Notes: generated from the letters alone by a model not told the origin. A stretch of 64,000 nt of DNA from Schmidtea nova (GCA_044892505.1 CM097883.1:256060001-256124000), one strand, 5' to 3'. Shown: positions 17,818 to 39,354, counted from the first letter of the stretch. Translations and numbers: made by a program.

Positions 17818-19200
17818 TTACGTCAACCATCCTTTTCTATCCGCTTTCTCATTCCTTTCCATTTCTATGTATAGGGTGTCTGCATATAATCGTTCCCATA
17901 GGCTTTCTTTTGTTATAAACATCGGTTCTCCCGCTGCTAATCCACATTCTGTGGTTGGTTTCTCGCTCGTACTCGCATGTTTCTCTGTCTCAAAGAATTT
18001 TTCCACTGGTTTTGTTACACTTCTGATTCTTACAATGACTCCTACTTTCAAGGGCCATTCTACTAGGTCGTCGTATTCCCCTTTACATAGCGAGAAAAAT
18101 ATTGACACATGTGTTCCTCGTCCTCTTCCGTCTCCATTTGGGTATAGCTTCAATCTCACTTTAGCTCCGTTTCTCCATAAATAAAATGGTGGGCTTATTA
18201 CTGCTGTTTTCGTCATATTTCTGGCCTCTGTTAATTTGTCTCTAAAATCTGTCACTTTCCACACATATGGTGCGATTGGTAACTTTTCCTCGGTATCCTG
18301 GGTGAGTTTGTTGTACTGGATTTTCATTCCTTTAGCCAATTCTTCGATAGCTTTTATCTTTCCCTCCATCTTTTCTCGTGTTAGTTCGAATTGCTCTCTG
18401 GTTTCCAACAGTAGGTTTACCATTATCTTGTGTGACTCTATTTCTCTTTCTAATTTTGTGATTGTTTGTTCGGTTTCTTTTGTTGCTTCGTTTGTCATTT
18501 CCGCATGCTTTAGCAATGCTTCCTCCAGATGTTGTTTCATGGTTTGTTGCGTTCTTTTCTCCATACATCCCTGTTTGTTATAAGGACATTCCCTTGGTTT
18601 CTCCGTGCACACTTTCCAATGTTCTTGTAATTTTACTTCTACCGTTATCTCGCATTCGTTTGAACATATTCCTACATATTGTCTACATACTTTCTCCTCT
18701 TTTACATTCAGGTGTTCTTCTTCGATCTTTCTCCTCGTTTCTCGAGTTCCACAATATTCGCATAGACTTTCCTCTTCTTTACATTCATCTTTGTGCTGCT
18801 CTTTATTCTTTATAGTTATCTTTTGTTGGCATTTGTTACATTCAGTTCTCTTCTCTTCGCAGTTCTCCAGATGGTTCTCGAGATCGCGTATTTGTCCTTG
18901 CCATATACATGGTTGATTTATACATTCGGTTTTCGTGTTCATGATTTCTCTCTGAGTTGCTCTATCTGGTCCGGTTTCTTTGAATTTTATTTGTCCTTCT
19001 TTGCATTCTGGACATTCTGGTGGTCTTTTCATACTTAACTCGTGTATGCATTTGGTACATACTCTGCATCCGCATAGGGTTTGTCTTGGTTTCAATATTA
19101 TGTTTTTACAATTTACACAAGTGAGTCTCTGACTCCATTTCCTGTTCTCGGCTCTCAAAATTTCGATTATCCGCTCTTCGGCTTTTCCTTCTGTATTCAT
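17818..19200 (-). CDS. TRAF: Intronless TRAF-family protein (RING, TRAF zinc fingers, coiled-coil, MATH/TRAF-C), 460 aa
   Basis: CVNC...CGCRVCTKC...CPEC RING; CINQPCIWQGQIRDLENHLENC and ECPYNKQGC zinc fingers; YVWKVTDF...SPPFY...LKLYPNGDGRGRGTHVSIFF...GEYDDLVEWP MATH signature. Confidence 0.95.
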   Translation of the reverse strand: MNTEGKAEERIIEILRAENRKWSQRLTCVNCKNIILKPRQTLCGCRVCTKCIHELSMKRPPECPECKEGQIKFKETGPDRATQREIMNTKTECINQPCIWQGQIRDLENHLENCEEKRTECNKCQQKITIKNKEQHKDECKEEESLCEYCGTRETRRKIEEEHLNVKEEKVCRQYVGICSNECEITVEVKLQEHWKVCTEKPRECPYNKQGCMEKRTQQTMKQHLEEALLKHAEMTNEATKETEQTITKLEREIESHKIMVNLLLETREQFELTREKMEGKIKAIEELAKGMKIQYNKLTQDTEEKLPIAPYVWKVTDFRDKLTEARNMTKTAVISPPFYLWRNGAKVRLKLYPNGDGRGRGTHVSIFFSLCKGEYDDLVEWPLKVGVIVRIRSVTKPVEKFFETEKHASTSEKPTTECGLAAGEPMFITKESLWERLYADTLYIEMERNEKADRKGWLT

Positions 19201-19291
19201 TCTACAATGATATATACACTTGATTTGTTATCTATTTTTTGATTTTTCTTGTTTTTGTTTTTACATATTTACAATTTTTCGCTTTATTTAT

Positions 19292-19648: not shown

Positions 19649-19773
19649 TTTCTAAATTATATACATTAATCGTTTTCTCGATTTCTCTTTTTATATTTTT
19701 ATAATATCGATACCCATACTATTACGGTAATGCATTGTTATTTACACTATTATTTACAGTCATATCCCGCCTC

Positions 19774-22700
19774 CTATATCACCATCACTGTCTTTCCTTC
19801 GTATCGCTCTTCATCTTCTATTTGTCTCCAAAATTCTTTACCTTTCGTCCTCCTTTGGAATTCTTTCTGTACTTCTTCCGGTAATTCTATACTGTAGTTC
19901 ATAATCTTTATATCTGGCCAATGTGTTATTGGTTTCTTGTTGAATACATCATATATCCATATTATTAATAATACTGTTATTACTGGAATAGTTGCTGCTA
20001 GTATTCCTAGACCAAATAGTTCTCTAACTTGTTTGTTTACGTCCATCTTCGTAATTTCACTCTGGTTAATCATTGGTCCGTATTGTCCCTTTAGTTTAGT
20101 TAGTAGTTGTTCTCGTTCTTGTTGTTTTCTTTTAACTTCTTTAATTACTTCTTCCGGCGTCCATCTTGCGTAAGGGTCTATTACTACTTGTTCTGCGTCC
20201 ATTCGTTTCGTTGTCTGACTTAATTCTTTAAATTCGAGTTTTCTCACTTTCCCTTTGGACGTTGAGTTTACCGGTGTGTAGTACGTTTCGCATCTTTCCT
20301 GCTGATTTCCCAGTATGTCCGTCTTTTCTATCGCACATATCTCGTATTCGCTATTGAATTTCAGATTTCTGATACTTATTTCCTCTTTTCCTTTTACGTT
20401 TTCGCAGTATCGTGGCTGTCTTTCTTTTTGTTCCTGAACTACTGCCCAACATATTTCTAACGTTTTATTGTCTATTCTCCATAGTATAAGAGTTGCTGTA
20501 GTATTCTTTTCGGTTTTTATTTGTATTTCTTGGTTTTTCTGTTGTCCATTAGGTTTAAAAGTAGTGGTATACCTCGTTTTTCCTTTGTTCCGTTGTCTTC
20601 TGCTTTTTCGCGTTGTCTTTCCAATTCTTGTTCTGGTGGGTGTTTTATATATTTTGCATTCCAGTTCATTTACTGTTATTTTGTCGCTCTTCCTGATCAG
20701 GCATATTTCGTACGTTTGATTACTTTCTAACCCTTCTATCTGTATTGTGGTTGTTCCTCTGTTTGTTCGACATTGCGGCGGTGTATTCTGGTTTGTTTTC
20801 TTTTCCTGCTTCTTCCAGCATACGCCTTTGACGTCCGGTTCTATTCCGGTTAACTCTAACATTATAGTTGTTCTCCGTTTGGTGCGTTTATTTCTTCTTC
20901 CTCGTCGTATGAACTTTATTGTTTCCCCAGGTTGAAATGTTTTACAAATTGTCGTTCCTTTCTTGTGTCTTTCTTTTTCTAGTAAACATAGTTCATACGT
21001 CCTGTCTGCTTTTACTTCTGATATCTTGGTTACTTTATTTGTTTTCCTTTTCCGACTCGTCTTTATTTCGCTTACGCCAATTTCTTCGTTGCTTCTGGCC
21101 CAACACTTTGGGTTGGTGTTTTGGGTGTCGTTCATCTCTGTTACTGCCATTGTGTCAATGTCTATCCCTTCTTCTAACCGTTTTAACATTGTTAATATGA
21201 GTGCTAAACATAGTAATTCTGTTTGGTAGGTCACTCTTTCAGTTTCATTTGTGGTTACTCTTACTTCGGGCCTGTCTATGGTAATTTGTATAGTTGGCGT
21301 TGTTCGTCTGTCTATTGTCTGAGGTTTCTTGTTTTTTGTTCCTTGTGTCTCTGTTCTTCCACACTTTCCTACGACATAGTCTCCTTTGGATGACTGCTGT
21401 ACTGTTATGGTTACTTTGGGTGTTAGGTAATTTGCACATGCAATTGTCTTATGTGATCTCGGATCCTTTGGTTTCCGAACGGTGCACATTCTGTACCAAG
21501 TATCTAGCTCTAGGTCATCGATCTCTATGATTTCTTGTTCGTATTCTGAGATCCTGCAATCCATTGGACTATTTTGTCCCGAGATTTTGTCCTTTTTTGA
21601 CCAACATACTCGTTCGATTCCTTTTGCGTTTCCAATTTGTATTGTCGCTCTTTCTTCACATATCATTCCTTGAGTGGGACTAATTAAGGTCATGATTACC
21701 GTTAGTAATAATAGTTCTGGTTTAAAGAATGGGTTTATTGTTTGTTTGTAGCCTGTTCTTTTTACTTCGTTTTTATTTTTATAGTTGTTGTTTCTTTGTT
21801 TCCCAAATTCATTTTTCTTATCATTTTTCTCTGTGTCCCTTCCTTTCTCTTCACTGTCCTCTTTATCTGATAACTCATGATCCTCTGGATTTTCTCGAGT
21901 ACTATCGTCGTCGTTTCCTGTATTGTCGCCTCCCCTTTGGTCGTTGAAAATGTCGTCCTCGACATTAATTGCTTCTATCATTTTTTCATACGTTATGGTT
22001 GTGAGTATACTTGCTTCGTATTCTTGTGTTTCTGCCTGCTTAGGTATTTCCTTATCGGTTAATTTACAATCTAGAATCTCTTTCTTGGCTTTTATCCAAT
22101 TATTGAGGTACGTTTTCATTAGTTCTTTCCATTTGTCCGTACGTTCTGTTTCCTTTGGGTTGTTTGTGAATCGTAAATCTTTTCTTCTCATGAAGATGTC
22201 TATTATCTTTGGCCATTTGTTTATTATTAATGCACACTTTATATATAAATTCTGGCCTTGTTCCATGAACTCGTTGATCCTGAATGCTGGTTCATTGGTG
22301 TTTGGGTTCATCCAATTGAGTATTGCTTCGGTTAGTTCAGCGTTATGCATCATGAAATGTACGCTAGCTTTTTTAACCGTCCTTGTAAGATATTCTATTT
22401 CCTCCTGATTTGTGATTGTTTTTATAAAATTTATCACCTCCCAATTGTGCGCTAACAACGCTACGTCTAGTATTGAGCTGTCTTTGTTAGTTCTTCCCAT
22501 GAGTCCTGCACCTGCTTCGTACAGTTCCTGTAACACTCGGGTTTTTGTGTTCGCTCTTGCTGCGAATATCATGAGGGTATCTCCCTTTTTATCTTTCCTG
22601 TTCATGTCACTTCCGCAATCTTGCATCAACCGTGCAATTTCGACTACCCTCCTATCTTTTCCTGCTCGTAAGGCTCTATGTATTGGCAATACTCCATTCT

Positions 22701-25700
22701 TTGTTAATAAGAAAGTCACTGGCATTTCTCTTTTTATGATCATCATATCGTTTTCATTGTAAGTTCCTTCCGCATATGCGCGTACCTTTTCCACAATTGC
22801 TCCGAGTATCTCCAGTGTATGTTTAGAATTTTCGAATTCTGGTAATAGTTCTTTTGCTTTGTCCTGTATCGCATCTAACCTTTCTTGATATGGTACTTCT
22901 GCGCTGAAAAGTGGTGTAAATTTCCTTTTGCTTTCTCTTTCCTTTCGACATAGGAATTGTTTGCATTTTTCGGGGTGGTTTAATATGTCTATTAGTTTGT
23001 CATACTCCTCCTCCACCGTTTTGTATTTGTCTTGAAAATTGGATATATCTTTGTAAGTTATCGACTTGGTTAGCGATTTTGCACACCATTCCCTAATATT
23101 ACTGAATAATGCTTCTTTTTCACTTTCGAATTTATACTCCTCTTTGTTTTTGGAAATTGTGATATTTCTTCTGTCCAATACTATTAACAGTGTTTTCTGA
23201 TCACAAACTAATTTTAATAGGAATTGTAATAACGCGTTTTGTCCTTCACTGTATACCTCGTTTATATTTAATACCCATGTATCATTTTCGGATCTTTTCC
23301 ACTTTATTAGCTTGCGTATTGTTTTGCAGTTACCGATTTTTTTTGCCTCCTTGATTATATCACCTTTGATCAGTTCGTCTATTTCCCAAGTGGCCTTCTC
23401 GATTATTTGTTTGAGCATTATCTGATTTGAGCTCCATATTGCGTGATTCAAGACTGTTTTGTTTTCTCTATCGCGTTCCGTCCAGTTGAAATCGGCATTT
23501 ATCAAAAGGTCTATTATTGCTTTATCCGATTTGTAGATGGCTGCTACCATTAATGGTGTTTCTTGTTCGCTATTCCCAAAACCAAGGTGTTGGTTTGTTT
23601 CCTTAGCGATTTTTAGAAATTCTTTTACTCTCTCTACTTCTCCCCATTTTATGGCGTTATGTAATGCTGGTTGTCCTCCTATGTCTTCTAGTGAAAGTAT
23701 TTCTGGAATTTTTTCCAGTAGTTCTGAAATGACTGGTTTTGTTGGTAGTCCCCTTGCGTAATCACTAATTATCGACTGAATATCTCTTAATATATCGTCT
23801 CTGACATGCCATTTTCCCATTATTTCTCTGGCTTTTAGTACAATTTCCTTGTTTCTTTTTTCTTGTTGCTTGTTTTCTGCTTCGGTACTTTCATCGGTTG
23901 CTCTGAGCATATTTATCCTGGCTGTCTGGGATCTTGTTATTATTCGTTCTTCTGGCACTGTGGTTATTGTTTTTGGTACTTTCTTACATCTGCATGTATT
24001 AACGTATATTGGTCGTATCAATGGTCGATTAACAAGTTTTACCTTCACATTGTTTTCCTTTTTGTATATAACTTCGTAAGGGCCTTTTCCTGGTCGTTGT
24101 AGTTTTTTAACGGTTCCTGGTATTATTTCTGGGGTTTCTATCATTACCCAATCTCCGGGTTTAAGATCATTTGTTTTAACATTTTTCTTTTGATCGTGTA
24201 GGTCCTTGTAACTTTCTTGATAAAACTTTATGTTTAGTTCTGCTGTCTTCCATATCTCTTGCATTCGTTCTTTGAATTTGGTGACGTAATCATCTTCCTC
24301 CATATATTGAGACAAGGGTGGTTGATATTCAAGATCTATTGGCATATTGCATTCCCTTCCATACATTAATTGAAATGGACTCAATTTTGTTGCTGCGTGT
24401 ATCGACATTCGGTATGCCATTAGACATAGCTTTACGTATTCATCCCAATCTGTTTGGTGTTTGCTTACATAATTGGATAACATTCGAATCAATGTGCCGT
24501 TAAATCTTTCCGTTTGTCCGTTGGTTTGCGGATGATATGGTGACGTTCGTAATTTGGCTATTCTGAAGTAATTTGTCACTTCATCTAGTATTTCGCTCAT
24601 AAAATTTGTTCCTTGATCTGTTAGTATTTGTTTCGGGGTTCCGTATCGACAACATATTTCCTCTACTAAAATTCTTGCTACGGTCTTTGCTTTTTGATCC
24701 GGCATCGCAAATGCTTCAGGGAATTTAGTCAAATAATCCGTTATTACCAATATATATTGATTCCCGTTTAAACTTTCTGGCAATGGTCCTATTACATCCA
24801 TCGCAATGGTAGTCATTGGTTCCGCTGGTATTGGCATGGGTTTTAAAGGATTTTTCCATTTCTTCCCACTATCCTTTCTTGTGGCACAAGTTAAACAGTT
24901 CTTTATCCATTCCTTTACGTCTTCGTCCATTGTTGGCCAATAATATTTTTGTCTCATGCGATCTAATGTTTTCTTATTGGACATGTGTCCTCCCAACTTT
25001 CCGTCGTGGTATTGAGTTATTATCTCTTTTCGTCTATTACCTGGCAGACACATTAATCGTTTCTCTCCATCTCGTATTAATAACCATCCTTTTTCTATTG
25101 TGTATCGATGTTGGTATTTCCTCATGTGTTCTTTTAACTCCGCATTGTCTTTGAATACATCCATATTCCGTGAGCTTAGGAATTCTATGATGGGTCTTAG
25201 TTCTTTATCCTCTTGCTGATCTTTCTTCAACTCACTGAAATCCAAATCCTCTGCTATCATTATGCATATTCTTTGCACTTCTGGGTCTGTTAGTTCTGGA
25301 AACGTTAATCTTGACATGCAATCTGCGTTGGCATTCGCTTTTCCTGATTTGAATTTTATATCTGGTGAATATTCTTGTAATTGCATCGCCCATCTCATTA
25401 ATCTGCTGGATGTTTCCTTATGTTGTCCTAGCCATACAAGTGGTTGATGATCTGTGGTTATGCATATAACGTGTCCCCATAATAGATATTTAAAGTGTTT
25501 TATTGCTAATATTATTGCCAATGCTTCTCTTTCCGTTACTGAATAATTCTTCTCGTGTTTCTTGAATGTTCTGCTATAATATCCGATTACCCGCTCTTTT
25601 CCCTCGTCATCATATTGTCCTAACACTGCTCCTGCTGCATATCCACTTGCGTCGGTTGCGAGTAAAAATGGCTTCTTGAAATCCGGGTGAACCAATATTG

Positions 25701-25767
25701 GTGCAGTTATTAACTTATCTCGTAATGTTTCGAAGGCTGTTTGTTGTTCGCTTCCCCATATGAACAT
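19774..25767 (-). CDS. pol: Polyprotein 3' part: RT connection, RNase H, integrase, ankyrin modules, FN3-like ectodomain, TM
   Basis: ATDASGYAAGAVLGQ (RNase H). HDGKLGGH...CLTC, MDVIGP, TDQG, GQTERFN and GKGPY (integrase). Continues the upstream ORF after a 1-nt deletion. Confidence 0.95.
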   Translation of the reverse strand: MFIWGSEQQTAFETLRDKLITAPILVHPDFKKPFLLATDASGYAAGAVLGQYDDEGKERVIGYYSRTFKKHEKNYSVTEREALAIILAIKHFKYLLWGHVICITTDHQPLVWLGQHKETSSRLMRWAMQLQEYSPDIKFKSGKANANADCMSRLTFPELTDPEVQRICIMIAEDLDFSELKKDQQEDKELRPIIEFLSSRNMDVFKDNAELKEHMRKYQHRYTIEKGWLLIRDGEKRLMCLPGNRRKEIITQYHDGKLGGHMSNKKTLDRMRQKYYWPTMDEDVKEWIKNCLTCATRKDSGKKWKNPLKPMPIPAEPMTTIAMDVIGPLPESLNGNQYILVITDYLTKFPEAFAMPDQKAKTVARILVEEICCRYGTPKQILTDQGTNFMSEILDEVTNYFRIAKLRTSPYHPQTNGQTERFNGTLIRMLSNYVSKHQTDWDEYVKLCLMAYRMSIHAATKLSPFQLMYGRECNMPIDLEYQPPLSQYMEEDDYVTKFKERMQEIWKTAELNIKFYQESYKDLHDQKKNVKTNDLKPGDWVMIETPEIIPGTVKKLQRPGKGPYEVIYKKENNVKVKLVNRPLIRPIYVNTCRCKKVPKTITTVPEERIITRSQTARINMLRATDESTEAENKQQEKRNKEIVLKAREIMGKWHVRDDILRDIQSIISDYARGLPTKPVISELLEKIPEILSLEDIGGQPALHNAIKWGEVERVKEFLKIAKETNQHLGFGNSEQETPLMVAAIYKSDKAIIDLLINADFNWTERDRENKTVLNHAIWSSNQIMLKQIIEKATWEIDELIKGDIIKEAKKIGNCKTIRKLIKWKRSENDTWVLNINEVYSEGQNALLQFLLKLVCDQKTLLIVLDRRNITISKNKEEYKFESEKEALFSNIREWCAKSLTKSITYKDISNFQDKYKTVEEEYDKLIDILNHPEKCKQFLCRKERESKRKFTPLFSAEVPYQERLDAIQDKAKELLPEFENSKHTLEILGAIVEKVRAYAEGTYNENDMMIIKREMPVTFLLTKNGVLPIHRALRAGKDRRVVEIARLMQDCGSDMNRKDKKGDTLMIFAARANTKTRVLQELYEAGAGLMGRTNKDSSILDVALLAHNWEVINFIKTITNQEEIEYLTRTVKKASVHFMMHNAELTEAILNWMNPNTNEPAFRINEFMEQGQNLYIKCALIINKWPKIIDIFMRRKDLRFTNNPKETERTDKWKELMKTYLNNWIKAKKEILDCKLTDKEIPKQAETQEYEASILTTITYEKMIEAINVEDDIFNDQRGGDNTGNDDDSTRENPEDHELSDKEDSEEKGRDTEKNDKKNEFGKQRNNNYKNKNEVKRTGYKQTINPFFKPELLLLTVIMTLISPTQGMICEERATIQIGNAKGIERVCWSKKDKISGQNSPMDCRISEYEQEIIEIDDLELDTWYRMCTVRKPKDPRSHKTIACANYLTPKVTITVQQSSKGDYVVGKCGRTETQGTKNKKPQTIDRRTTPTIQITIDRPEVRVTTNETERVTYQTELLCLALILTMLKRLEEGIDIDTMAVTEMNDTQNTNPKCWARSNEEIGVSEIKTSRKRKTNKVTKISEVKADRTYELCLLEKERHKKGTTICKTFQPGETIKFIRRGRRNKRTKRRTTIMLELTGIEPDVKGVCWKKQEKKTNQNTPPQCRTNRGTTTIQIEGLESNQTYEICLIRKSDKITVNELECKIYKTPTRTRIGKTTRKSRRQRNKGKTRYTTTFKPNGQQKNQEIQIKTEKNTTATLILWRIDNKTLEICWAVVQEQKERQPRYCENVKGKEEISIRNLKFNSEYEICAIEKTDILGNQQERCETYYTPVNSTSKGKVRKLEFKELSQTTKRMDAEQVVIDPYARWTPEEVIKEVKRKQQEREQLLTKLKGQYGPMINQSEITKMDVNKQVRELFGLGILAATIPVITVLLIIWIYDVFNKKPITHWPDIKIMNYSIELPEEVQKEFQRRTKGKEFWRQIEDEERYEGKTVMVI
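19950..21720 (-). other. C-terminal membrane-protein module of the polyprotein: signal peptide, 4 FN3-like repeats, polybasic sites, TM
   Basis: PELLLLTVIMTLISPTQG|MICEE. Repeats share C-W...(I)xxL...Y-x-[IML]-C...C-x-x-[YF]-x-[TP]-P. RNKRTKRR at ~20872-20907. Sequons NET, NDT, NQT, NTT, NST, NQS. TM LFGLGILAATIPVITVLLIIWI. Confidence 0.65.
22420..23680 (-). other. Two ankyrin-repeat modules (~3 repeats each) after integrase
   Basis: GQPALHNAI, QETPLMVAA, ENKTVLNHAI (~23400-23680); GVLPIHRAL, KGDTLMIFAA, KDSSILDVAL (~22420-22705). Confidence 0.85.
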
Positions 25768-28700
25768 ACGTCTTTCTTTACTAGCTCCTGGATTGGTTTT
25801 GCAATTCCTGCGTAATCCTTTATGAATTTTCTATAGTAACCGCATAATCCGAGAAATTCTTGGATCTGCGTTATCGTCTTTGGTACTGGACATTCTTTTA
25901 CTTTATCAATGTTTCTGGGATCTGGTTCCTTTCCTTTTGCGGACACAATATGTCCTAAGAATGTCACTTTCTCTTTTGCCCAATCGCATTTCGATGGTTT
26001 GAGCTTGAGTTTCCATTGTCTCAATCTCACAAATACATCTCTGATATCTTGGATGTGTTGTTCAAATGTGCTTGAGTAGATTAGTAGGTCATCAATGTAA
26101 ACCATGCATTGTTTTATGCCGTGGGTGACAAAATTCATACATCTTTGAAATGATGCTGGTGCATTGGTTAGTCCAAATGGCATTTTCCTAAATTGGTACA
26201 AGTCTCTTCCGATAGTGAAAGCAGTTTTCTCTTTGTCTTCCTCTTTCATTTTAATTTGCCAGTATCCGCTTTTCAAATCCAATGATGTAAAATATGCCGC
26301 TCCTTGTAATGTCAATAACATCTCGTTGATGTCTGGTAATGGGTATGTATCCCTTTTTGTTACCGCATTTAATCTCCGATAATCAATACAAAACCGTTGT
26401 GTTCCGTCTTTCTTTTTCACCATTACAACTGGGAATTGCCACGGTGAGCAGCTTGGTTCAATTACTTCTGCGTCTAGCATTTTCTGTACTTCTGCTTCTG
26501 CTACTGATTTTTGCGCTTCAGCTAACTTGTATGGTCTTAACGCAATAGGCGTTTTGTCTGTTAGTGGAATCGTATGTAGTGTGACGTCGCATGTCCCTAG
26601 ATCTAAATCGGATGCTGCGAATATGTCTTTATATTCCATCAGTAACCTTTCTAGCTGTTTCTTTTGATCCTCATTTAGTAGTTGGCTATCAATGTTCCAG
26701 GTGGGTTCCTCCTCTTTTACTCCTTCTTTTATTGGTATTTCGATATCTATCATTGGAGTTAGTTTACCTAGTCTTTCATTTTCATAAATTATTTTATCCT
26801 CTTCATCGAAATTTACTACATTTATTGGGATTTCTCCGTTGTCATTCGCACTCACTAATCCCCTTGCCATTGGCAACGACTTTCTCTTTTCAAATCTTTT
26901 ACTGGGTTCAAAAATCATGTCACCTTCTATTGTAGGGTCTATTTTTACGAAGCATATTTTCTCTCTCCGTGCTGGTACGATTATTTGTTTCGAACTTGTT
27001 ACTTTTGCTTCTATTGCGCATATCTGTCCTGTCCTGTCCTTTAGTCTCATTGTTCCGAGATCAATAACTATTTCTTTAAATAATGCTGGCATTAAATCTG
27101 TGCCTATAATGCATGGTACGCTTAGTGCTGGTATTACTGCTACGTACGTTTCGATTTCCGTGTTTTGATGTTTTATCTTTACCCACCATCTTCCGGCAAC
27201 TTCTACTACTTCTTTACTGCATGCTATTACGTGAACGTTGGTTCTCTCGATATCCCGTCTTTGTTCTTGTGGTATCCATTTTATATCTATTGCTGAGATA
27301 TTTGCTCCTGTATCAATCATCGCTTCTATTTCCCTTCCGTTAATTTCGATTGTTGTAGTTAATACCGGACCGGTGTTTGATGACATTACTGCAATTGTAT
27401 GTGAGTCTCCTTGCGGATCTACGCTTCTGCACCGTCTCGTTCTATAGTCTTCTGGTATCATAGGATATATGTTTGTCATCGGCATCATTTGCATTGTATT
27501 TTGTCTCATCCCTGGTGTTGGTTCTTGGTACATGGTTGGTGGGGGTGCGTAACACTTCCACATTTCCGCTGGATTCTTTTCGACATACTGTGGTACTTGA
27601 TTTTTAAATACTTGACCTCCTTCGTTATCATCATCATCGTCGTCACTGGAATCGTCTTGGGTTCTGTACCCTTTCATTCTTTCCCATAGTCCTTTTCTCT
27701 CTTTCTTTAGTTGTTGTCTTGCTTGCTCGTTATTCATTATCTTTTTAAATTTTCGTCCCACCTCTTCATCGGTTCCTTTCATTTTTGCCAGTATTTTTAG
27801 GAGTCTCTTTATTCGGTGAATATCTTTTGAATGACCGTGTAATACCATTGTTTTAGCCAAAAATGGTAAGAATCCTACCACCAATTTCCAATTTACTTTC
27901 TTTTCTCTTTTATAGATGTCAAAACAGGCTAACATTTGCGTTATTATTACCCGTATTATTTGTATAATTAGTATAACACCAAGTATTCCTGCCATCATTT
28001 GTCCAAATATTAAAAATCTTCCCCACATCGCTTTCATCATGTTTTCCGTTGCCTTCTTAAAGTGGGCTGGTGACAATAATAATTCGTAATTTGGTCCACC
28101 TTGGTAATTTGTTCCTCCTGTTATTGTTACAATGCTGGATAACACCGCTTCCATTCTTGCTGGAAATAGTATGTTTTGTCTTGCTGCTTCTAAGTCTTTT
28201 GCGCTATAGAATCCCATATTACTTACATCTACGTCTTTAAATTTTCGTCCTTTTGATAGTTGCATCAATTCAAATTCCCTTGGTGCTGGTACCTCTGTTC
28301 TTGACGGAAACATAACCCAATTCCCGTCTGGTTTTTGGTATAGTGGTCCATATGCGTTGCTGCAATTGAAAGGATTTGGTTCGAAGCTTATTGGATTTAT
28401 GATTCTTGTCACTGGTTGCACATATCTTACTTTCCCTTTATATTCGATTTCTAGTTCGTTAGTACACTGACCTGGTTGTAATTTTGTCATTGTCGCTACC
28501 TTCGCGTTTGTCTTTTTACATATGTATACATACATGACCTCTCCGACTACCCTTCCAAAATGACCTTCTCTCAATGGTAATAATGGCATTGCACTATCAG
28601 GGTTTGTGATTGCTACCGCTAGTTTTGTCTTTAATATTTCCCTATTTAATATGCAATCGTTGTTAATTAAATCGTAATACACTTTTTGTAGTGACGCTTG

Positions 28701-31700
28701 TCCTCTATGGAACAGAAAATCCATTTTATTGTTCATGTAAAGGTGTAATTTAACATCGTTCGTGTGCACTTTGCGTTTCGCACTAGGTACTTCTTGTTTT
28801 GATACAAAAATGCCGGGGTAGTTGGTTTCCAACATAGCTACTCCGCATTTCAAGGCTGTTTTTCCTTTTACAAACCTCATTCCGATATCTGCATCTGAGG
28901 TAATTAGTACCGTTGGTGTATTTCTCATTTTAATTTGTTTTTCTTGTGTTCGGGTTTCAATCTTTTTCTCTCCTCGTACTGTGTCTTGAAGTATTTTTCC
29001 TCTTGCTACCTCGTCTTCTTCTTCCTCTTGGAAGGTTTTCCCTTGTATCTCATCGAATTCTGCTTCCTTTAACAGTTGTAGTTGACATTCCTTTCCTCGT
29101 ATCTGGTAGGTTAAGGTTGACATACCGGTTTGGCAAGTGTTTGACTCGATTTTGCACATGGGCAGGGTTTTCATTTCTCCCGTTGTTGGATCGAAGAATG
29201 CCTCGTACGTTTTTAATTCTACTGTATAGGTATCTATTACCACTAGGTTTGTTGCTGCTACTCCGAATATTGGATATGTTGCTCCTTGGCAGTACCCTTC
29301 TCCTCCCGTAATAGCTCCTGCTACATAATAAGTTTGTTGCAATATCACTCCCGTTTTTCCTCTTATCTTTACTCTATCTCTAGTCTCTACTTCTCCATGT
29401 TTAAATAATTTTTCGCAGTCTTCTCCTTGCAGCATTACCGATTCTCTTTCCGTTCCTGGCATCACGATTGCTGAATAATGGCGGTGTCCACAATAAAAAG
29501 CAAATCTGGTTTTATAAACTTTGCATTCCCTGACCATTGTTCTTATCAGTTCAGCTTCCTGATATACGTGGTATAATTGTCTCTTTTTTAATGTTTTTAA
29601 CTCCGTTGGGGTTGCGTCCTTACATTGTTCTGTCCCTCGTAGTGAATATTTCTCACCTAATGCCATTTGATCGCAATCGAATACTTCAAATGCTGTTGCG
29701 CCGTCAGTACTAATCATCCATATTAACATCATCATAATAATGGAACTCAAGTTTAGTGACGATTTCCCGTTTCCTGTTCCCGACTTTTCCTTTTCCAATT
29801 CTCCCAATATCTCTTCGAATTTCCTTTTCATATTTTTGGCTTGGTTTTTCTTTTGGTTCGTTTTTGTGAATGTCTCCCATCCTCCTTTACTGATGATGTA
29901 CGGTTCTATTTCCTTCTCTATAATTTTGGCTGTATTCTTTATATGTCTTTCAAGTGCTGTGGGTTTCAGTCGACCTCTACTCAGTGTCAGCAGATTGTAA
30001 ATGGTGTATGCCATAGCTATTAAATATTTGTTATCCGTCTCTGCTCCTTCCGTTAACTTCTTTATCAACATCGTGGTTCCTTGCCAATCTAGGTGGTTTG
30101 ACCTTGTCTTCTCTTTTATTAATTCTGGTAGGATTGGTGCGATGGCGCTATGCAGTGATTTCGCCCTTTCGCTTATTTCGTTTATTCTCCACCATTTCTT
30201 TAATTCCGGATCGATTATTGCCAGTATTTCTATTAACATCTTTGATATCCATTCTTCGCCTTGGTATGTTTGTGTTGTTTCTTTTTCTTTCGTTTCGGCT
30301 ATTTTATTTAGTTTCTTTAGACACAAATCCCATTGATCCCGTCTTTTTTCCTCTCTTGATTTTATCACTACATTTGCTGGATCTATCTTGGGTCTACCTC
30401 TAGGTCGTTTATCCATTGTCGTGCCCATTTCTACTAATCTTGTTTCTCGTCCAGTTTCTTCTGTGACGTCTCTTGGTTCATTGGCTCTTTCTTCTAACCA
30501 TCTTTCCATTTCTTGTGTGAATTGTACATTTTCTACATTTGCCCTCCTTGCTTCCTCTTCTGCTATTTCATTTACTTCTTCGATGATTATTTCTTGTTCA
30601 ACTTCATCTTCGGTGTTGGTTACCGGTATTGCTGTTGGTAATTCTTGAATTCTTTCGAAAATATTATCATCTTTCTCTTTTGTTAGCTCTATTAACTCCT
30701 CTAACATATCATCGCTATCTGTAAAAATTTCGTCTACATCGTATGGTTCTGGTGGTGTTCTTTCTCTTGTCTCTCTTGGTGTTGTTCTAGCTTGTTCTGA
30801 GCTTGTTCCTGGAGTCATTACCGATTTCATTGGGCTCGGCGTACTCATACTTCCTTTTGGTTTCTTTTCCTCTTTCAATTTTAATGGTTGGCCTGCTATT
30901 GCTGCCACTGTCAATGTATTTGCGATATCTAATTGCGCTGGCGTTATTCCAATTTCTAAGCTGTTATCTAATGATCGTCCTTGGTGTTGTAAATGGAATG
31001 GTGGTTCATATCTCAATTTCTTTTTAATGTCTCGAACTTTCTCCGCTATCCCTACCCAAAACTCTTCTTTTTCCTGGTTCGGATATACTATTCTTAGGTG
31101 TACTTTCTGTGGCGATTCCTGCGAGAATTCCTGGTTTCTCCATTTTTTAATTACGTGATCCAATTGTTCTGGACACCACTCGTTAACTCTTTTGTATTCG
31201 GCGATTGCTTTTGCTACTTTACGCAAGCATGTTATGTCTTCTCCATTAACTACGAAAAAATCTGCTAGACCTTTTACTACTTTTCTCTTGCCGTGCGCAT
31301 TGGTTTTTAATATTTCGACAAATTCCTCTGTTTTTTGTTTCTCTCTTTCCAACCACATGGTTGCCGTTTCTGGTCCGTCTAAATCTGCTGGCATGGCTTT
31401 TCTTGTTACCATACAAACCCTTCCCGTTTCCGGTTTGTGATCGTCTTCTATGCCTATTTCGTATTCCTCTTCGTATTCGCCTGCTTTTGGTTCCCAACAT
31501 TTTCCTCGTTCGTTCCATTGTTTTTCTACAGGTGTTCGTAATCGTCTGTTGAGATTGAGTTCTTCTAATACATCTTCCCATTCTGGCCAAATCCGCCAAT
31601 TTCGATAAATGTCTACTATTTGTTGTAATTTATGCACAACTTCTTTTTGTCGTTCCCGTTCTCTTTTCTCATCCTTAGCAGTTTCTCTTGGTTTATCGTC

Positions 31701-34700
31701 CATTCTGATAACGTGGATGGTTTGGTGATTATCCCATATACCAATTTTATATAGCCGTCTTTCATCGTGATCCCATAATACATGTTCGTTGTATTTCATG
31801 ATTATGTCATCTTCCCATTCTTCTTCTGGTTCTCTTTGTAATAGTGTCTCGTTGATGACATTTACTAATTCTTTTATGGTACAATCTGCTACCACTTCAA
31901 TTTCTTTGGTATCCTCATTAGGTAACTCTACTGCAATTTTCAGATCTGTTATTTTCCCTTGTCTGAACATTGCTTTTCCCATTTTGGCAATTACTTTTCC
32001 GTATGAGATCTGTGACCATCTCGTGTGACTTGTGTCACGTATGCACTCGATACATCGTTTTAACTTTTCGTATTCGCTTCTCATTAACTCCTTTCTATGT
32101 TTTTTGATTTGTGGGATGATTTGTTCTATCATGGAATTTAGATTTCCTCGTAAGATTCGTCCTTTCTCATATTCTAACCGTGGTTTTATCTTCTTCTCGA
32201 AACACATATTTGCTTCCTTTGCTACTTCTTGTAGGTTCTCTTCCCTCTTATCATCGCATATCGATAATGTCGTCACCTCTCCTGGCCATATGCCTGTTTC
32301 TATCAAATGCGTCCTTTTCTTCACTAGTCCATTCTGTGAATAGAGGAATTTGTTTTTATATGAACTCCCTAATCTATCTTCTACCCATTGATAAATATCT
32401 TCCGTGAGTGGAGTTTTGACCCAAATCCTTGGCAAACATGTTTTTATCTCTATTAGGATTATATATTCATGGAGTGGTTCTTTTAATAATTTTCCTACGT
32501 ATTGGCTTAGTGTTTCTACTTCCCTGCCTGGTAACCACTCTTTATAGTTCATTTGTAATATCGCTCTCATGAATTTTCTATAGTGTTTCTTGTCAATGAA
32601 TTCCTCATTATATATTACTTCTAGCGTATTATCTAATAATTTCTGGATCTCGTCTTCTTTTACTTGAATAGTTCCTGGTGTCTTTACTACTTCTATCTTT
32701 TTGTCTTCAATTTCTGGTTCGTTTAGCATGTCCCCTGCTAGACTACTGACGTCACTATCCTCTTCGTCGTCTGAAAAATTCCTTGCCTGGCCTCTCAACA
32801 TGTTAATGTGTTTTATTTGGTTGATTTCCCTTGGTGTATTTTCCGTGGGTCTTGTTTCACTTTTAATAGCTTTTTGTGTTGATTCACTCTTGTCGTCTAC
32901 TACCTCGACCTTTCTCATTTTTCGTTCTAACTCGTCTATTTCTTCCAGCCGTCTTCGTATCATTTTCCCTTTAAATATTCGACTGATTCGTGTTTCGTGA
33001 CGCACTGGCGATGGAATTCCTTCTGGTTCTATTTCCTTGATTACCATCACATTTCTTTTTGTCTCTACTACTCCCATGTTTTCCCATGTATCCGTTAGTT
33101 TCAATTTTACTTCTGGTGCACCTTCTATTTTTAGGAATACTTCTCTGGGCAGTTTCGTTACTCCTGGAGCCATTTCATTCACTTTATTGAACAATATTTC
33201 TACTTCTTCCTTTATGTTATATTGGAATCGAAACACGTGCTTGTTTGGCAATATTACCATCATTCCTCTTTTCCCGAGTTTCCTTTTCTCTTCTTGGTTC
33301 CTTTCTTTTTCTACTTCCTTTTCTGTTTCTTTTTCTGCTTCTTCATCTTCTTGTATTATCTCTTTTCGGCCTTCGTTGTTGGTTGGATTCGGGTTTGTTA
33401 GATTTATTTCTGGAACAGTCTCTTTCTCGTGGGTATTTGTTTGATTGGTTGCTCTCATCATATTAATTCTTAGAGGTTGTCGTTCTCTTTCTTGCTGTTT
33501 TTGTTCCTCTTCTCTTTGTATTCTTGCCCATTCCTGAGCATGTCGTGCTTGGCTTTCTCGATTCAATCGTTCGTTTTCGCTTTCTATTTTTCTCATCATA
33601 TTGATTTGTTGTTGACCTGTTTGCGGATTTCCTCTGGTTGTATTGTTTATCAGCTCCGTCAATCTTTGAACCTCTTGCATTAAATGTATCTCTTTAGTGG
33701 TATTTTTATTTTGGTTATTATTATTACTATTTGGTTGGTTTCCGTATTCCGGTTGGTTTCCATTATTTGGCTGATTCCCATAATTCTGTCGGTTTCCACC
33801 AGTTGGTTGGTTTCCATAGTTTTGTCGGTTTCCGGTATTCTGCCAGTTTCCTCGTTGATTGCTTCTTTGTCCGCAATTTCTTGATAGGTGTCCAGGCCGT
33901 CCACAATTAAAACAGGTTATTGTGTAACATCTGCTCTCTGAATGCCCTTTTACTCCACATTTTCCACAATTCAAGTTCTGATAACATTCTTGTTGCCAAT
34001 GTCCCAATTTCCCACATGTTTTACATTGTTTCGTTGGTCCTTGGGGGTTGTAATTGCTTTGATTTCCGAAATTTGATACTTTATTCCCTTCATTCCTTCG
34101 TTGCGGTGGTGGTCGGTTTAATTGTTGTGAATTTGGAATGTGGTTATTCAGGTTCACTTCTTGTTCGTTTTGTGCTGTATCCATAGCTAAATAGATTCTA
34201 CCATCATTTCCTATCATGTGTAGTTCAAATCTATTAGCTGTTTCTAATGCTTGGTCAATAGTTTTACACCCTTGACATCCAACTTGCGCTCTTATGTCGG
34301 GTCTTCTTAATCCTCCCACAAAGATAGCTGCCATTAACTCTTCATTTATTGGACTGTCTTGATTGAAAATCAACTTTGCCAACTTTTTTAATTCGCTTGC
34401 ATATACCGCATTTGATTCATTTATCTTTTGTTTCCTCATTGAGAATTCCGTGAATGCCTCATTCAATACTTTGTTTATTCCGAAGGTTTGTTGGAAAAAG
34501 TCCTTTATCGCTGACCAACTTGTAGGTGGATTAATTCCATTTTTTGCTTCCAAATATAGATCTAATGCGCTATCTTTTAAATATAGCTGAATTCTGCTTA
34601 CAGTTGTTTCTGGTTTCCACTTGCATACTTCCACGAATATGCCAAATTCCTTTAAGAAAGTTTCTAATTTACTCGCATCTCCATTAAACGGTTCTCCGGA

Positions 34701-35162
34701 AAATTTGTCTTTTATCTCTTCTCTTGGTTCACTCATTTCGATTCCGCTGTCTGTAGTTATTTTACTTTCGTTTCCTCTTGTTTCTAGTTCACTGTTAGGT
34801 TCGTCACTCGAATTTCGGTCGATCTCAGTTTCTTTTGCTGATTCGTTATCTGATGCTTTACTATCGTTATCGGTATCGTCACTTTCTGTTTCTTGTTCTA
34901 CTTCGTCTTCTATTTCTTCTATATAATCGTTGTTGGTTTTGTCGACTTCTATTTCACTTATTGGGTTTCTCTCGGGTTCTGCTTGATTTTCTTTGTTGCT
35001 TGAACTGTTGCTTGTTACTGATAATTTATCGTTTTCGATAATCGACTTTTGTATTATTATCTGCCTTGCTTTACTTCCTTTTAGGCCTTTCTGATTATTA
35101 TTCTTGGTAGCTTTATTCTTTTCTGCTGGTTTTATTATGACACTCTTTTCTCCTTTTCTCAA
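25710..35162 (-). CDS. gag-pol: Polyprotein 5' part (3,150 aa): Gag, UBL x4, AT-hook, Bcl-2-like, fusion glycoprotein, protease, RT
   Basis: Uninterrupted 9.45-kb ORF with PFNGD capsid-like region, three CCHC knuckles, DTG protease and RT (FCIDYRRLN, DLKSGYWQ, MPFGL, YIDD). Track start is TTG; first ATG is at 34736. Confidence 0.95.
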   Translation of the reverse strand: MRKGEKSVIIKPAEKNKATKNNNQKGLKGSKARQIIIQKSIIENDKLSVTSNSSSNKENQAEPERNPISEIEVDKTNNDYIEEIEDEVEQETESDDTDNDSKASDNESAKETEIDRNSSDEPNSELETRGNESKITTDSGIEMSEPREEIKDKFSGEPFNGDASKLETFLKEFGIFVEVCKWKPETTVSRIQLYLKDSALDLYLEAKNGINPPTSWSAIKDFFQQTFGINKVLNEAFTEFSMRKQKINESNAVYASELKKLAKLIFNQDSPINEELMAAIFVGGLRRPDIRAQVGCQGCKTIDQALETANRFELHMIGNDGRIYLAMDTAQNEQEVNLNNHIPNSQQLNRPPPQRRNEGNKVSNFGNQSNYNPQGPTKQCKTCGKLGHWQQECYQNLNCGKCGVKGHSESRCYTITCFNCGRPGHLSRNCGQRSNQRGNWQNTGNRQNYGNQPTGGNRQNYGNQPNNGNQPEYGNQPNSNNNNQNKNTTKEIHLMQEVQRLTELINNTTRGNPQTGQQQINMMRKIESENERLNRESQARHAQEWARIQREEEQKQQERERQPLRINMMRATNQTNTHEKETVPEINLTNPNPTNNEGRKEIIQEDEEAEKETEKEVEKERNQEEKRKLGKRGMMVILPNKHVFRFQYNIKEEVEILFNKVNEMAPGVTKLPREVFLKIEGAPEVKLKLTDTWENMGVVETKRNVMVIKEIEPEGIPSPVRHETRISRIFKGKMIRRRLEEIDELERKMRKVEVVDDKSESTQKAIKSETRPTENTPREINQIKHINMLRGQARNFSDDEEDSDVSSLAGDMLNEPEIEDKKIEVVKTPGTIQVKEDEIQKLLDNTLEVIYNEEFIDKKHYRKFMRAILQMNYKEWLPGREVETLSQYVGKLLKEPLHEYIILIEIKTCLPRIWVKTPLTEDIYQWVEDRLGSSYKNKFLYSQNGLVKKRTHLIETGIWPGEVTTLSICDDKREENLQEVAKEANMCFEKKIKPRLEYEKGRILRGNLNSMIEQIIPQIKKHRKELMRSEYEKLKRCIECIRDTSHTRWSQISYGKVIAKMGKAMFRQGKITDLKIAVELPNEDTKEIEVVADCTIKELVNVINETLLQREPEEEWEDDIIMKYNEHVLWDHDERRLYKIGIWDNHQTIHVIRMDDKPRETAKDEKRERERQKEVVHKLQQIVDIYRNWRIWPEWEDVLEELNLNRRLRTPVEKQWNERGKCWEPKAGEYEEEYEIGIEDDHKPETGRVCMVTRKAMPADLDGPETATMWLEREKQKTEEFVEILKTNAHGKRKVVKGLADFFVVNGEDITCLRKVAKAIAEYKRVNEWCPEQLDHVIKKWRNQEFSQESPQKVHLRIVYPNQEKEEFWVGIAEKVRDIKKKLRYEPPFHLQHQGRSLDNSLEIGITPAQLDIANTLTVAAIAGQPLKLKEEKKPKGSMSTPSPMKSVMTPGTSSEQARTTPRETRERTPPEPYDVDEIFTDSDDMLEELIELTKEKDDNIFERIQELPTAIPVTNTEDEVEQEIIIEEVNEIAEEEARRANVENVQFTQEMERWLEERANEPRDVTEETGRETRLVEMGTTMDKRPRGRPKIDPANVVIKSREEKRRDQWDLCLKKLNKIAETKEKETTQTYQGEEWISKMLIEILAIIDPELKKWWRINEISERAKSLHSAIAPILPELIKEKTRSNHLDWQGTTMLIKKLTEGAETDNKYLIAMAYTIYNLLTLSRGRLKPTALERHIKNTAKIIEKEIEPYIISKGGWETFTKTNQKKNQAKNMKRKFEEILGELEKEKSGTGNGKSSLNLSSIIMMMLIWMISTDGATAFEVFDCDQMALGEKYSLRGTEQCKDATPTELKTLKKRQLYHVYQEAELIRTMVRECKVYKTRFAFYCGHRHYSAIVMPGTERESVMLQGEDCEKLFKHGEVETRDRVKIRGKTGVILQQTYYVAGAITGGEGYCQGATYPIFGVAATNLVVIDTYTVELKTYEAFFDPTTGEMKTLPMCKIESNTCQTGMSTLTYQIRGKECQLQLLKEAEFDEIQGKTFQEEEEDEVARGKILQDTVRGEKKIETRTQEKQIKMRNTPTVLITSDADIGMRFVKGKTALKCGVAMLETNYPGIFVSKQEVPSAKRKVHTNDVKLHLYMNNKMDFLFHRGQASLQKVYYDLINNDCILNREILKTKLAVAITNPDSAMPLLPLREGHFGRVVGEVMYVYICKKTNAKVATMTKLQPGQCTNELEIEYKGKVRYVQPVTRIINPISFEPNPFNCSNAYGPLYQKPDGNWVMFPSRTEVPAPREFELMQLSKGRKFKDVDVSNMGFYSAKDLEAARQNILFPARMEAVLSSIVTITGGTNYQGGPNYELLLSPAHFKKATENMMKAMWGRFLIFGQMMAGILGVILIIQIIRVIITQMLACFDIYKREKKVNWKLVVGFLPFLAKTMVLHGHSKDIHRIKRLLKILAKMKGTDEEVGRKFKKIMNNEQARQQLKKERKGLWERMKGYRTQDDSSDDDDDDNEGGQVFKNQVPQYVEKNPAEMWKCYAPPPTMYQEPTPGMRQNTMQMMPMTNIYPMIPEDYRTRRCRSVDPQGDSHTIAVMSSNTGPVLTTTIEINGREIEAMIDTGANISAIDIKWIPQEQRRDIERTNVHVIACSKEVVEVAGRWWVKIKHQNTEIETYVAVIPALSVPCIIGTDLMPALFKEIVIDLGTMRLKDRTGQICAIEAKVTSSKQIIVPARREKICFVKIDPTIEGDMIFEPSKRFEKRKSLPMARGLVSANDNGEIPINVVNFDEEDKIIYENERLGKLTPMIDIEIPIKEGVKEEEPTWNIDSQLLNEDQKKQLERLLMEYKDIFAASDLDLGTCDVTLHTIPLTDKTPIALRPYKLAEAQKSVAEAEVQKMLDAEVIEPSCSPWQFPVVMVKKKDGTQRFCIDYRRLNAVTKRDTYPLPDINEMLLTLQGAAYFTSLDLKSGYWQIKMKEEDKEKTAFTIGRDLYQFRKMPFGLTNAPASFQRCMNFVTHGIKQCMVYIDDLLIYSSTFEQHIQDIRDVFVRLRQWKLKLKPSKCDWAKEKVTFLGHIVSAKGKEPDPRNIDKVKECPVPKTITQIQEFLGLCGYYRKFIKDYAGIAKPIQELVKKDVCSYGEANNKQPSKHYEIS
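25800..26560 (-). other. Reverse transcriptase core
   Basis: SPWQFPVVMVKKKDG, LDLKSGYWQ, MPFGLTNAPASFQR; YIDD at 26088-26099. Confidence 0.97.
27050..27370 (-). other. Retropepsin aspartic protease
   Basis: AMIDTGANIS (DTG at 27306-27314) and IIGTDLM. Confidence 0.95.
27835..29750 (-). other. env: Envelope-like fusion glycoprotein, chuvirus G / class III-like, in frame between Gag and protease
   Basis: Signal SSIIMMMLIWMISTDGATA|FEVFDC. Cys pattern ECKVYKTRFAFYCGHRHYSAIV, GYCQGATY, KCGVAMLETNYPGIFV, YMNNKMDFL, DCILNREIL, VVGEVMYVYIC, CTNEL, PVTRII, CSNAYGPLY. TM GRFLIFGQMMAGILGVILIIQII. Confidence 0.85.
29865..30340 (-). other. Bcl-2-like domain
   Basis: All-helical ~160 aa ending in BH2-like IEPYIISKGGWETF. 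Divergent BH1-like DNKYLIAMAYTIYNLL. A hydrophobic anchor follows ~35 aa later. Confidence 0.65.
30387..30410 (-). other. AT-hook motif KRPRGRPK
   Basis: Exact HMGA-type AT-hook consensus, in frame (aa 1585-1592). Confidence 0.75.
30898..33270 (-). other. Four ubiquitin-like (beta-grasp) domains with helical spacers
   Basis: ~33030-33270, 32250-32465, 31700-31947 (IAVELPNEDTKEIEVVADCTIKELVNVI...IMKYNEHVL...LYKIGI...TIHV) and 30898-31106 (LQHQGRSLDNS). No C-terminal GG. Confidence 0.7.
33872..34710 (-). other. gag: Gag capsid-like domain and three CCHC zinc knuckles
   Basis: EPFNGDASKLETFL...LYLKDSALDLY; CKTCGKLGHWQQEC, CGKCGVKGHSESRC, CFNCGRPGHLSRNC. Confidence 0.92.
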
Positions 35163-35930: not shown

Positions 35931-35968
35931 ATCCGGATATCCCTATTGGCTCCTTTGGCCTCTAATTA

Positions 35969-37053: not shown

Positions 37054-37515
37054 TTATAAATAAACTACAATTTTATCAGCTACAGAGAAATTGCACATGG
37101 GGCACTCATCACACTTGTTCGCACAGTTTTTACAGAATCGAAAATGTCCACATGGAAGAAACATTATTTGGATTTCACTGTCTTCGCATATGTAACATTG
37201 TTTATAGTGTTTTGCTGCCTCGACCCCTTGCGACATCCATCGGTTATATGTTAGACTTAACTGCTGTTCTATATGTCGGCATCTAATATTCAACTCGGCA
37301 TCCTCTAATCGTGCTTTGTACCATTTATATCGCGTATTTATATCGAGTTTATTCACTTTCTCTATGATTTTTATTAACTCAGTTGTTTCCTCCGTTTGTG
37401 TCGTAGGTTCCTCATATTCGGATGCTCTTATTCGGGTTATTTTTTCGCAGACTGTCTCAAATGTATCGTTCTCGGTGTTGAAAAATTCCTCGATTTCTTT
37501 CAGTTTTTCCTCCAT
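37054..37515 (-). CDS. Accessory protein with C-terminal IAP/XIAP-type RING finger (153 aa), between PBS and gag
   Basis: CYICEDSEIQIMFLPCGHFRFCKNCANKCDECPMCNFSVADKIVVYL at the extreme C-terminus. No BIR domain seen. Confidence 0.88.
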   Translation of the reverse strand: MEEKLKEIEEFFNTENDTFETVCEKITRIRASEYEEPTTQTEETTELIKIIEKVNKLDINTRYKWYKARLEDAELNIRCRHIEQQLSLTYNRWMSQGVEAAKHYKQCYICEDSEIQIMFLPCGHFRFCKNCANKCDECPMCNFSVADKIVVYL

Positions 37516-37561
37516 TTCCTAGATAATTTATTTAATTACTGTGTTAATATTATTCGAAAAG

Positions 37562-37855: not shown

Positions 37856-37873
37856 ATCCCGGCTGAGCCCCCA
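37856..37873 (-). other. Primer-binding site, tRNA-Pro type
   Basis: TGGGGGCTCAGCCGGGAT, 16/18 identical to the classical tRNA-Pro PBS TGGGGGCTCGTCCGGGAT; 6 nt from the LTR end. Confidence 0.88.
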
Positions 37874-38440
37874 AATTTATGCTGGGATTATGGGTGGGTT
37901 TTAAGTAATTCAAATAAATTATTAATCATTAATTGAACGACTATTGATGAGTACGTTTACTAGGGATTTCCACGCCCATAACCATACATAACATGACTAC
38001 TACACGCGTATGCCCTTGACTATTCCCTACTAGTCAAGTTGGTACTGCATACGGTGGTGGAAAAATGATGGGCAGGTGAGCTTTGTTGCCAAAACTACTC
38101 CCCATTTATCTTCCCTCGGGTCCTTGCTGCCGATAGAAGGTCTTACGCATTTACATTCTATGGATGTTCGTTTCTTACTGCATTTTATACTACATATCCT
38201 TATGATCTATCATACGCTTTTCCCAATGACTTTCCTTAATTGATCTACAATGTAATTAATCAGTCTCGGCGTAGAAATGGTCGGTTTGAGAAAATTACGG
38301 ATGCGATTTTCTATTTCGATGATTTCAGTGTTGTTAATTTATTTTATTTAGTAACCTCGCCCGATGAGAGACAAAATTTACACAGAAAATACTTTTATTA
38401 AAATACTAAAATCAGGTTGTTATTTTACATGGATATTTTC

Positions 38441-39025: not shown

Positions 39026-39354
39026 GCTGTCTGAATATTATAACGATAAATTCGCTGGAGGACCTATCAACAATGTTATTTTATTTAGTCTATTATTTAC
39101 TATCATTAAACGAGATGCATACTAATGTTTTTAATTATTAAGTTTGTTGCCAAATTAATTAACTATCTAATTATTGAAGGCTCAAAAATTTTATTGAACT
39201 AATTTGAGATTATTAAATGAAATTCCTAATGACTATAACAACTACAATACTGGATATTAATAAATCTACATTACGACACTATTAACAAAATGAGATACTT
39301 CAGAAATTTTTTAAAACATTTATTAAATTCAAAAATAGGTGGCCATTGATTCAA

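Follow-up and report, generated by a model that had tools for sequence, protein, structure and literature searches.

We propose that the polyprotein of a giant LTR retrotransposon, found in a 64,000-nucleotide stretch of the Schmidtea nova genome (the window), is probably made as one chain of ~5,130 residues in which four hydrophobic signals would place two loops in the ER lumen, and from which signal peptidase would produce three membrane-bound products. The four hydrophobic segments had been pointed out in a sequence-only reading of the same DNA; all lie where that reading put them and recur in relatives, and the alternating topology with two internal signal-peptidase sites that it suggested is well supported by conservation (20/21 polyproteins for signal 1, 9/11 relatives for signal 2). 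By simple scales (Kyte-Doolittle and Hessa 2005), internal signals with n-, h- and c-regions alternate with stop-transfer helices, and the three highest 19-residue Kyte-Doolittle peaks of both frames are TM2 (2.63), TM1 (2.57) and signal 2 (1.82). The earlier description of a chain that threads the membrane twice holds for two lumenal loops, the chain itself making four crossings, and the label "flavivirus-style" stands for the manner of processing and not for kinship. Neither the class III fusogen in the first module, nor the FN3-like nature of the second, nor the Burro identity of the element is stated in that reading.

A Burro-type element and its long frame

The locus is a young Burro-type Ty3/Gypsy LTR element (Table 1). 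It is a complete LTR element of 28.8 kb on the minus strand, with a 4-bp target-site duplication, TGAA, bordering both LTRs at 12432-12435 and 41227-41230, and the PR-RT-RH-IN order, the LTR pair, the duplication and the tRNA primer site are all those of Ty3/Gypsy (Metaviridae). By comparison of E-values the closest solved RT is that of Ty3 (4e-54), followed by foamy (3e-21) and MLV-type (3e-13) enzymes. The primer tRNA is likely tRNA-Pro(TGG), the genes for which are seen in a tandem array of period 308 bp (L049, G000:C1:459.6 Mb), with 1,106 pattern matches genome-wide.

Table 1. Features of the element in the window
Feature	Position	Strand	Basis or remark
3' LTR	12436..15782	(-)	pairing with 5' LTR
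Accessory TRAF-like ORF (RING-like, zf-TRAF, MATH), downstream of polyprotein	17818..19227	(-)	MATH_2 E 7e-21, zf-TRAF
Polyprotein frame 2, RNase H to C-terminus, 2,018 aa	19774..25830	(-)	open frame
TM2 and ~58-aa tail	19951..20010	(-)	C-terminal TM in 9/11 relatives
Predicted second lumenal module: four Cys-bearing FN3-like repeats, 7 sequons, basic linkers	20263..21666	(-)	repeat alignment
LLCLALILTML	21184..21216	(-)	aligns with signal 2 and repeat 1
Internal signal peptide 2, cleavage predicted between TQG and M	21667..21714	(-)	core after IN in 9/11 relatives
Ankyrin repeats, best stretch	23395..23664	(-)	Ank_2 E 2.2e-13
RNase H and integrase	24529..25758	(-)	RT_RNaseH, Integrase_H2C2, rve
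Polyprotein frame 1, Gag to RT, 3,161 aa	25710..35195	(-)	frameshift at RT/RNase H junction in window copy
Reverse transcriptase, YIDD, Ty3-like	25944..26420	(-)	RVT_1 E 1e-37
Aspartic protease, DTGA	27084..27356	(-)	RVP E 3.7e-08
WKLVVGFLPFL, conserved post-TM helix	27858..27890	(-)	family-wide conservation
TM1 (stop-transfer), basic residues after	27951..28025	(-)	alignment
Env ectodomain, class III fusogen of chuvirus/herpes gB type, 14 Cys nearly invariant	28026..29690	(-)	PF24664, alignment, model
Internal signal peptide 1, cleavage predicted between ATA and FEVFDC	29691..29744	(-)	conserved core and -3/-1 site
Bcl-2-like domain (weak), BH2-like GGW motif at end, 47 aa before signal 1	29868..30278	(-)	
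Gag CCHC zinc knuckles, three	33873..34025	(-)	Pfam
Accessory ORF, IAP-type RING finger, upstream of polyprotein	37054..37518	(-)	zf-C3HC4_3 E 1.4e-11
Primer-binding site, complementary to host tRNA-Pro 3' end	37856..37873	(-)	sequence; matching pattern within host tRNA-Pro(TGG) genes
5' LTR, ~3.35 kb, TG...CA	37880..41226	(-)	3 differences in 3,349 bases from other LTR

The assignment to Burro rests on the published description of these elements. Burro1-4/GYPSM1 are giant LTR retrotransposons of planarians, and their in-frame env between gag and pol is already known from the passages of Arkhipova and Yushenova 2019 (PMC6431247). The giant size, the multi-kb LTRs (3.35 kb here) and the single ORF of ~5,000 aa are shared, as are the ankyrin and MATH/TRAF cargo and a mononegavirus-like env in frame between a BCL2-like domain and PR, the Bcl-2 match being weak here. 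The same passages report a Dugesia tigrina element with a 5,140-aa ORF and MATH in an accessory ORF, which lies upstream there, whereas the TRAF/MATH ORF lies downstream here (PMC6431247). The cargo varies among Burro families: of the UBL, BIR and dUTPase of Burro1, Pfam detects none in the window, where a RING ORF is present. The ubiquitin-like domain claimed for this copy in the sequence-only reading is found only in relatives P0001 and P0005.

No BIR was detected with the RING ORF, which sits in the 5' leader and recalls the B-IAP region reported for Burro1. The TRAF-like ORF is intronless and is followed by further small coiled-coil ORFs (15986-17728 and 19292-19651); this cargo was probably taken over from host signalling. 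Between the RING ORF and Gag, tandem arrays occupy 35695-36579 in units of 41, ~45 and 61 bp, the 61-bp array being 100% identical over 6.6 copies. The LTR contains internal ORFs of 198 and 176 codons (38441-39037 and 39355-39885, minus strand) with no Pfam match. A strong AT skew (about -0.3 to -0.5; coding strand A-rich) at 16000-36000 is confined to the element, and the host flank carries inverted-repeat structures, MITE or foldback-like, at 50159-52420 and 52944-54001.

The domain order of the polyprotein is Gag, Bcl-2-like, signal 1, class III Env, TM1, PR, RT, RH, IN, ankyrin, signal 2, FN3-like repeats and TM2, of which Pfam detects in the window the zinc knuckles, Monjiviricetes_fusion (E 2.6e-68), PR, RT, RNase H, IN and ankyrin. 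As frames of at least 5,000 codons are open in 34 of 67 scored siblings (taken from 2,907 candidates), a single long polyprotein is the normal state of the family. Exactly 5,140 codons are found in 24 of the 34; a stop interrupts the match in one, and the 3.8 kb around the RT/RNase H junction is fully open at 5/9 sibling loci. The first in-frame ATG is codon 154 of the polyprotein frame, and one pattern search near its 5' end gave no match. The frame begins PLRKG (35100-35200, minus strand), resembling the MLLRSG starts of P0002 and P0003, so translation may begin at a non-AUG codon or in an exon further upstream.

For comparison we used six polyproteins with an Env identity of 37-39% and further ones from a representative search (best 150 of 969); these relatives share descent, and the conservation counts given below are not independent events. 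A length-matched search with Env alone returned one protein. Another family in the same genome (L041-L048), with frames of ~3,400 codons, repeats the four-signal layout; it carries four zinc knuckles and matches Bcl-2 more clearly, the identity of module 2 between subfamilies being 59%.

Signal 1 and the class III Env

Signal 1 reaches a Kyte-Doolittle value of 1.47 over 19 residues and 2.52 over 11. With fixed anchors for all 21 polyproteins that contain an Env N-terminus, an 11-residue core of at least 2.3 lies within 40 residues before [YF]DC in 20, and small residues at -3/-1 are found, in one register, in 20/21, against 4/374 upstream windows as background. Ahead of the core K/R outnumber D/E by 48 to 16. 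Among free viral relatives of 600-720 aa (n=79), 65 have a Met start and [YF]DC in the first 70 aa, with a hydrophobic core before it in 60. As the register of signal 1 is that of the N-terminal signal peptide of these free relatives, it is likely the captured glycoprotein's own signal peptide, which to judge from its sequence was kept functional-looking 1,800 residues into the chain. That SRP would engage so far into a chain is assumed by analogy with viral precedent.

The same signal could be N-terminal if the long frame were mostly expressed in pieces, with spliced or internally started messages beginning at signal 1 or 2, Gag made from a shorter message and the full multi-pass chain rare. 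In 12/21 polyproteins a Met is found in the 30 aa ahead of the signal-1 core or at its start, Pol of foamy viruses is translated from a spliced mRNA and packaged by way of RNA in the passages of PMC7828637, and a single frame would give an awkward 1:1 ratio of Gag, Pol and Env. Yet such a Met is absent in the other 9/21, and no stop interrupts the frame from Gag through module 2 in 33/67 scored copies or in full-length relatives. Moreover, an Env-started message would still span Env, TM1, Pol, signal 2, FN3 and TM2, so that three of the four signals are internal regardless. We therefore think piecewise expression unlikely and retain the single chain.

It is also conceivable that the signals are inserted but left uncleaved, in which case signal 1 would be a Bcl-2-type tail or signal anchor, only the element's protease would cut the polytopic chain, and Env would be intracellular or vestigial. 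Bcl-2 proteins carry a membrane anchor after BH2, and in three relatives signal 1 lies 38-64 aa behind the BH2-like motif, at the position of that anchor. The -3/-1 rule nevertheless holds in 20/21 while the signal's own sequence diverges among relatives, signal 1 is present also in P0002, P0003 and P0006, where no Bcl-2-like region is seen, and Env has kept 14 near-invariant Cys and a confidently modelled fusogen fold, all of which make an uncleaved chain very improbable and favour cleavage by signal peptidase. Of the Bcl-2 domain named in the sequence-only reading there remain weak matches: the Pfam E-value is 0.14 in the window and 0.0049 in the sister family, a profile matches Bcl-xL at E~0.006, its top match being a designed coiled coil, and a phmmer search of the region against PDB gave 0 matches.

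The Env model, built from a 98-sequence alignment, has a pLDDT of 87.7, and Foldseek matches it to herpes gB (E 4.6e-14) and to a chu-like virus G (E 4.8e-40). By the modelled fold and the conserved cysteines Env is a class III fusion protein, with fusion activity and a trimer as predictions. Sequons in Env are fewer than expected (12 vs 21.3, p 0.02) and their positions are not conserved; we rejected sequon enrichment as evidence for a lumenal Env since they are depleted. The furin motif R-x-[KR]-R occurs in 0/10 Env domains and in 1/9 second modules, the window's own, which speaks against furin cleavage, named earlier as possible, as a general step.

In TM1, 12 columns are free of charged residues in ~91 aligned rows and are followed by K/R in 54% and 78%. 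Two helices after TM1 carry periodic charges, including inside WKLVVGFLPFL (K/R 41%, D/E 35%), whose Hessa sum is +7.2, compared with -0.2 for TM1; this post-TM helix is fairly hydrophobic in relatives (KD15 2.0-2.3). Passages of PMC12607583 describe gB as an ectodomain, MPR, TM and cytoplasmic domain, single-pass, with an amphipathic membrane-binding helix in the tail. By this analogy WKLVVGFLPFL is likely an amphipathic helix on the cytosolic leaflet, inherited from the virus, as a reading alongside an Env model that contains no membrane.

Pol between the predicted loops and the predicted second lumenal module

Between TM1 and signal 2 the hydrophobicity threshold is reached in 3/412 windows (11 Pol segments). 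As the basic n-regions would be cytosolic at both signals, the number of passes between them should be odd and Pol cytosolic, as its enzymes also need. Ankyrins and extra protease-like domains shift position among relatives, but every one seen lies in a segment predicted to be cytosolic. Many of P0001-P0011 have two to five D[TS]G motifs or domains of protease type, some of them after integrase or before Env.

Signal 2 is weaker or below threshold in the 2/11 relatives other than those counted in Table 1, both copies of the sister family, and the register of its cleavage site varies among relatives. Between signal 2 and TM2 most relatives have beta-rich repeats with an FN3-like motif, none being seen in P0019. 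The motif of the FN3 beta-sandwich is L-x-P-x-T-x-Y. A profile of 13 repeats, which were picked by their FN3-like motif, gave weak matches in PDB, mostly to FN3-bearing receptors (IGF1R, Dscam, NCAM2, neogenin, tenascin; best E 0.005), and an Atlas cluster search with module 2 gave fn3 at 0.89, a lead only, with 10/10 best named matches in one family or clan. A single-sequence model of module 2 has a pLDDT of 40 and Foldseek found no fold match for it; phmmer against PDB gave one non-significant match. With scores as weak as these, module 2 may be called FN3-like.

Module 2 is under purifying selection. In 21 copies of the window's family, the 20 siblings being chosen among long-frame ones, pN/pS is 0.26 for variants present in at least two copies and 0.64 for singletons (Fisher p 0.013), which indicates that the module is used as protein. 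Its sequons exceed expectation (44 vs 25.3 in seven sequences, p 5e-4), those in the predicted cytosolic parts standing at 67 vs 73.7 and 73 vs 67.0 expected. TM2 is weaker in P0009 and not clear in P0019; strongly basic runs follow it in P0001, P0005 and P0006, and its flanks are acidic in P0002.

The stretch LLCLALILTML within module 2 aligns in register to signal 2 and repeat 1 with a score of 79, compared with 27±5 for shuffles (0/2,000), and by this alignment it is a copy of signal 2 that was duplicated along with repeat 1 and has decayed. The 10 further post-integrase regions show no duplicate signal of this kind; other internal stretches, weak ones, occur in P0019. We consider it likely that LLCLALILTML is translocated, and it is the weakest point of the topology for the window's family.

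Both this stretch and the post-TM helix had been quoted earlier as stretches that could alter the topology. If the post-TM helix added a membrane dip or a second pass, or if LLCLALILTML stopped transfer in the window's family and left FN3 repeats 2-4 cytosolic, the chain would be rewired. The conservation of the helix in ~90 aligned sequences fits such a rewiring, as do an 11-aa Kyte-Doolittle value for LLCLALILTML of 2.98 (2.97 for signal 2), the KR that follows it, the absence of any gained charge in 21 copies and the very basic linkers of repeats 2-4. Against it, the Hessa sums are +7.2 for the helix and +8.0 for LLCLALILTML, charged residues lie inside the helix family-wide, and a second pass would turn PR/RT/IN to the lumen and invert signal 2. 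In addition, 6/7 sequons of module 2 and its paired Cys are located after LLCLALILTML, and the 10 other regions manage without it. A rewired chain is thus quite unlikely, the earlier worry is mostly resolved, and we keep the topology of two lumenal loops.

Proposed processing and its relation to known systems

According to the topology that we favour, the four hydrophobic signals would thread the chain through the ER membrane as two lumenal loops, and signal peptidase would cut after signals 1 and 2. The first product would be cytosolic Gag with the Bcl-2-like cargo, anchored at its C-terminus by the cleaved signal 1, as in HCV core. The second would consist of a lumenal class III Env with a single TM, a cytosolic loop of PR-RT-RH-IN-ankyrin and a second anchor at signal 2, and the third would be a type I glycoprotein of FN3-like repeats, stalk, TM2 and a short tail, possibly with an attachment or accessory function. 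On the cytosolic side, Gag, RT-RH and IN would then be released by the protease that the element itself encodes, and Pol would be joined to Env and not to Gag. Translocation, cleavage, Pol tethering, full-length translation, budding and the role of the FN3-like protein are what we infer from this arrangement.

According to passages of PMC9094657, Gag, Pol and Env of Atlas virus (Belpaoviridae) also form one polyprotein, in which the internal TM helices and cleavage sites follow the layout of phlebovirus GN/GC and two glycoproteins stand in tandem. Unlike the present element, Atlas is BEL/Pao, has a class II fusion protein, places Env last and keeps Pol with Gag (PMC9094657), whereas here a Ty3/Gypsy element has a class III Env mid-chain and Pol between two predicted lumenal loops. 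Membership in Belpaoviridae was rejected because of the Ty3-like RT and the position of Env before PR. The same glycoprotein family was captured by Anakin (Pao, chuvirus glycoprotein; passages of PMC7642597) and Tas (gB-like env), which belong to another retroelement family, the env-like genes of BEL/Pao lying downstream of the polyprotein (PMC7642597).

In HCV, the capsid protein ends in the signal peptide of the next glycoprotein, is cut by signal peptidase and stays anchored in the ER, as PMC5402940 describes for core-E1. The likeness is an analogy and not homology, for the present element is reverse-transcribing, has one class III fusogen and carries its enzymes between two glycoproteins. 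Retroviruses and LTR retrotransposons normally load their enzymes as a Gag-Pol fusion, with foamy viruses as the known exception in passages of PMC7828637. Like these, the element would not package Pol as a Gag-Pol fusion, but instead of the spliced Pol message and RNA-mediated packaging described there (PMC7828637), Pol would be the tail of Env.

The passages of PMC6431247 on Burro describe no membrane topology, no internal signal peptides and no second FN3-like glycoprotein, and in the literature searched, leaving aside Grohme 2018, Lee 2026 and Repbase, we found no published account of the membrane topology of Burro or of an FN3-like second glycoprotein. Measured against that literature, both the threading into two loops and the FN3-like glycoprotein would be new. 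A tentative thought, to which we give less than even credence, is that the elements make up a so far unrecognised group of reverse-transcribing viruses with an envelope, a clade with a class III fusogen, an FN3 attachment protein, signal peptidase parting Gag from Pol and Pol packaged only as the tail of Env.

The conserved signals imply a third route for Pol, as the cytosolic tail of Env in place of a Gag fusion, and they come with a second glycoprotein revealed to be under purifying selection. If the tentative reading as enveloped viruses holds, the element would have to bud into a membrane even when retrotransposition stays inside the cell, and the leftover signal would hold the Bcl-2-like cargo at the ER. 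Burro1 is reported to help planarian stem-cell survival (Lee et al. 2026, as cited in PMC13465017). With the exact ends of the predicted products at hand, both enveloped cell-to-cell particles and the location of the anti-apoptotic cargo become testable.
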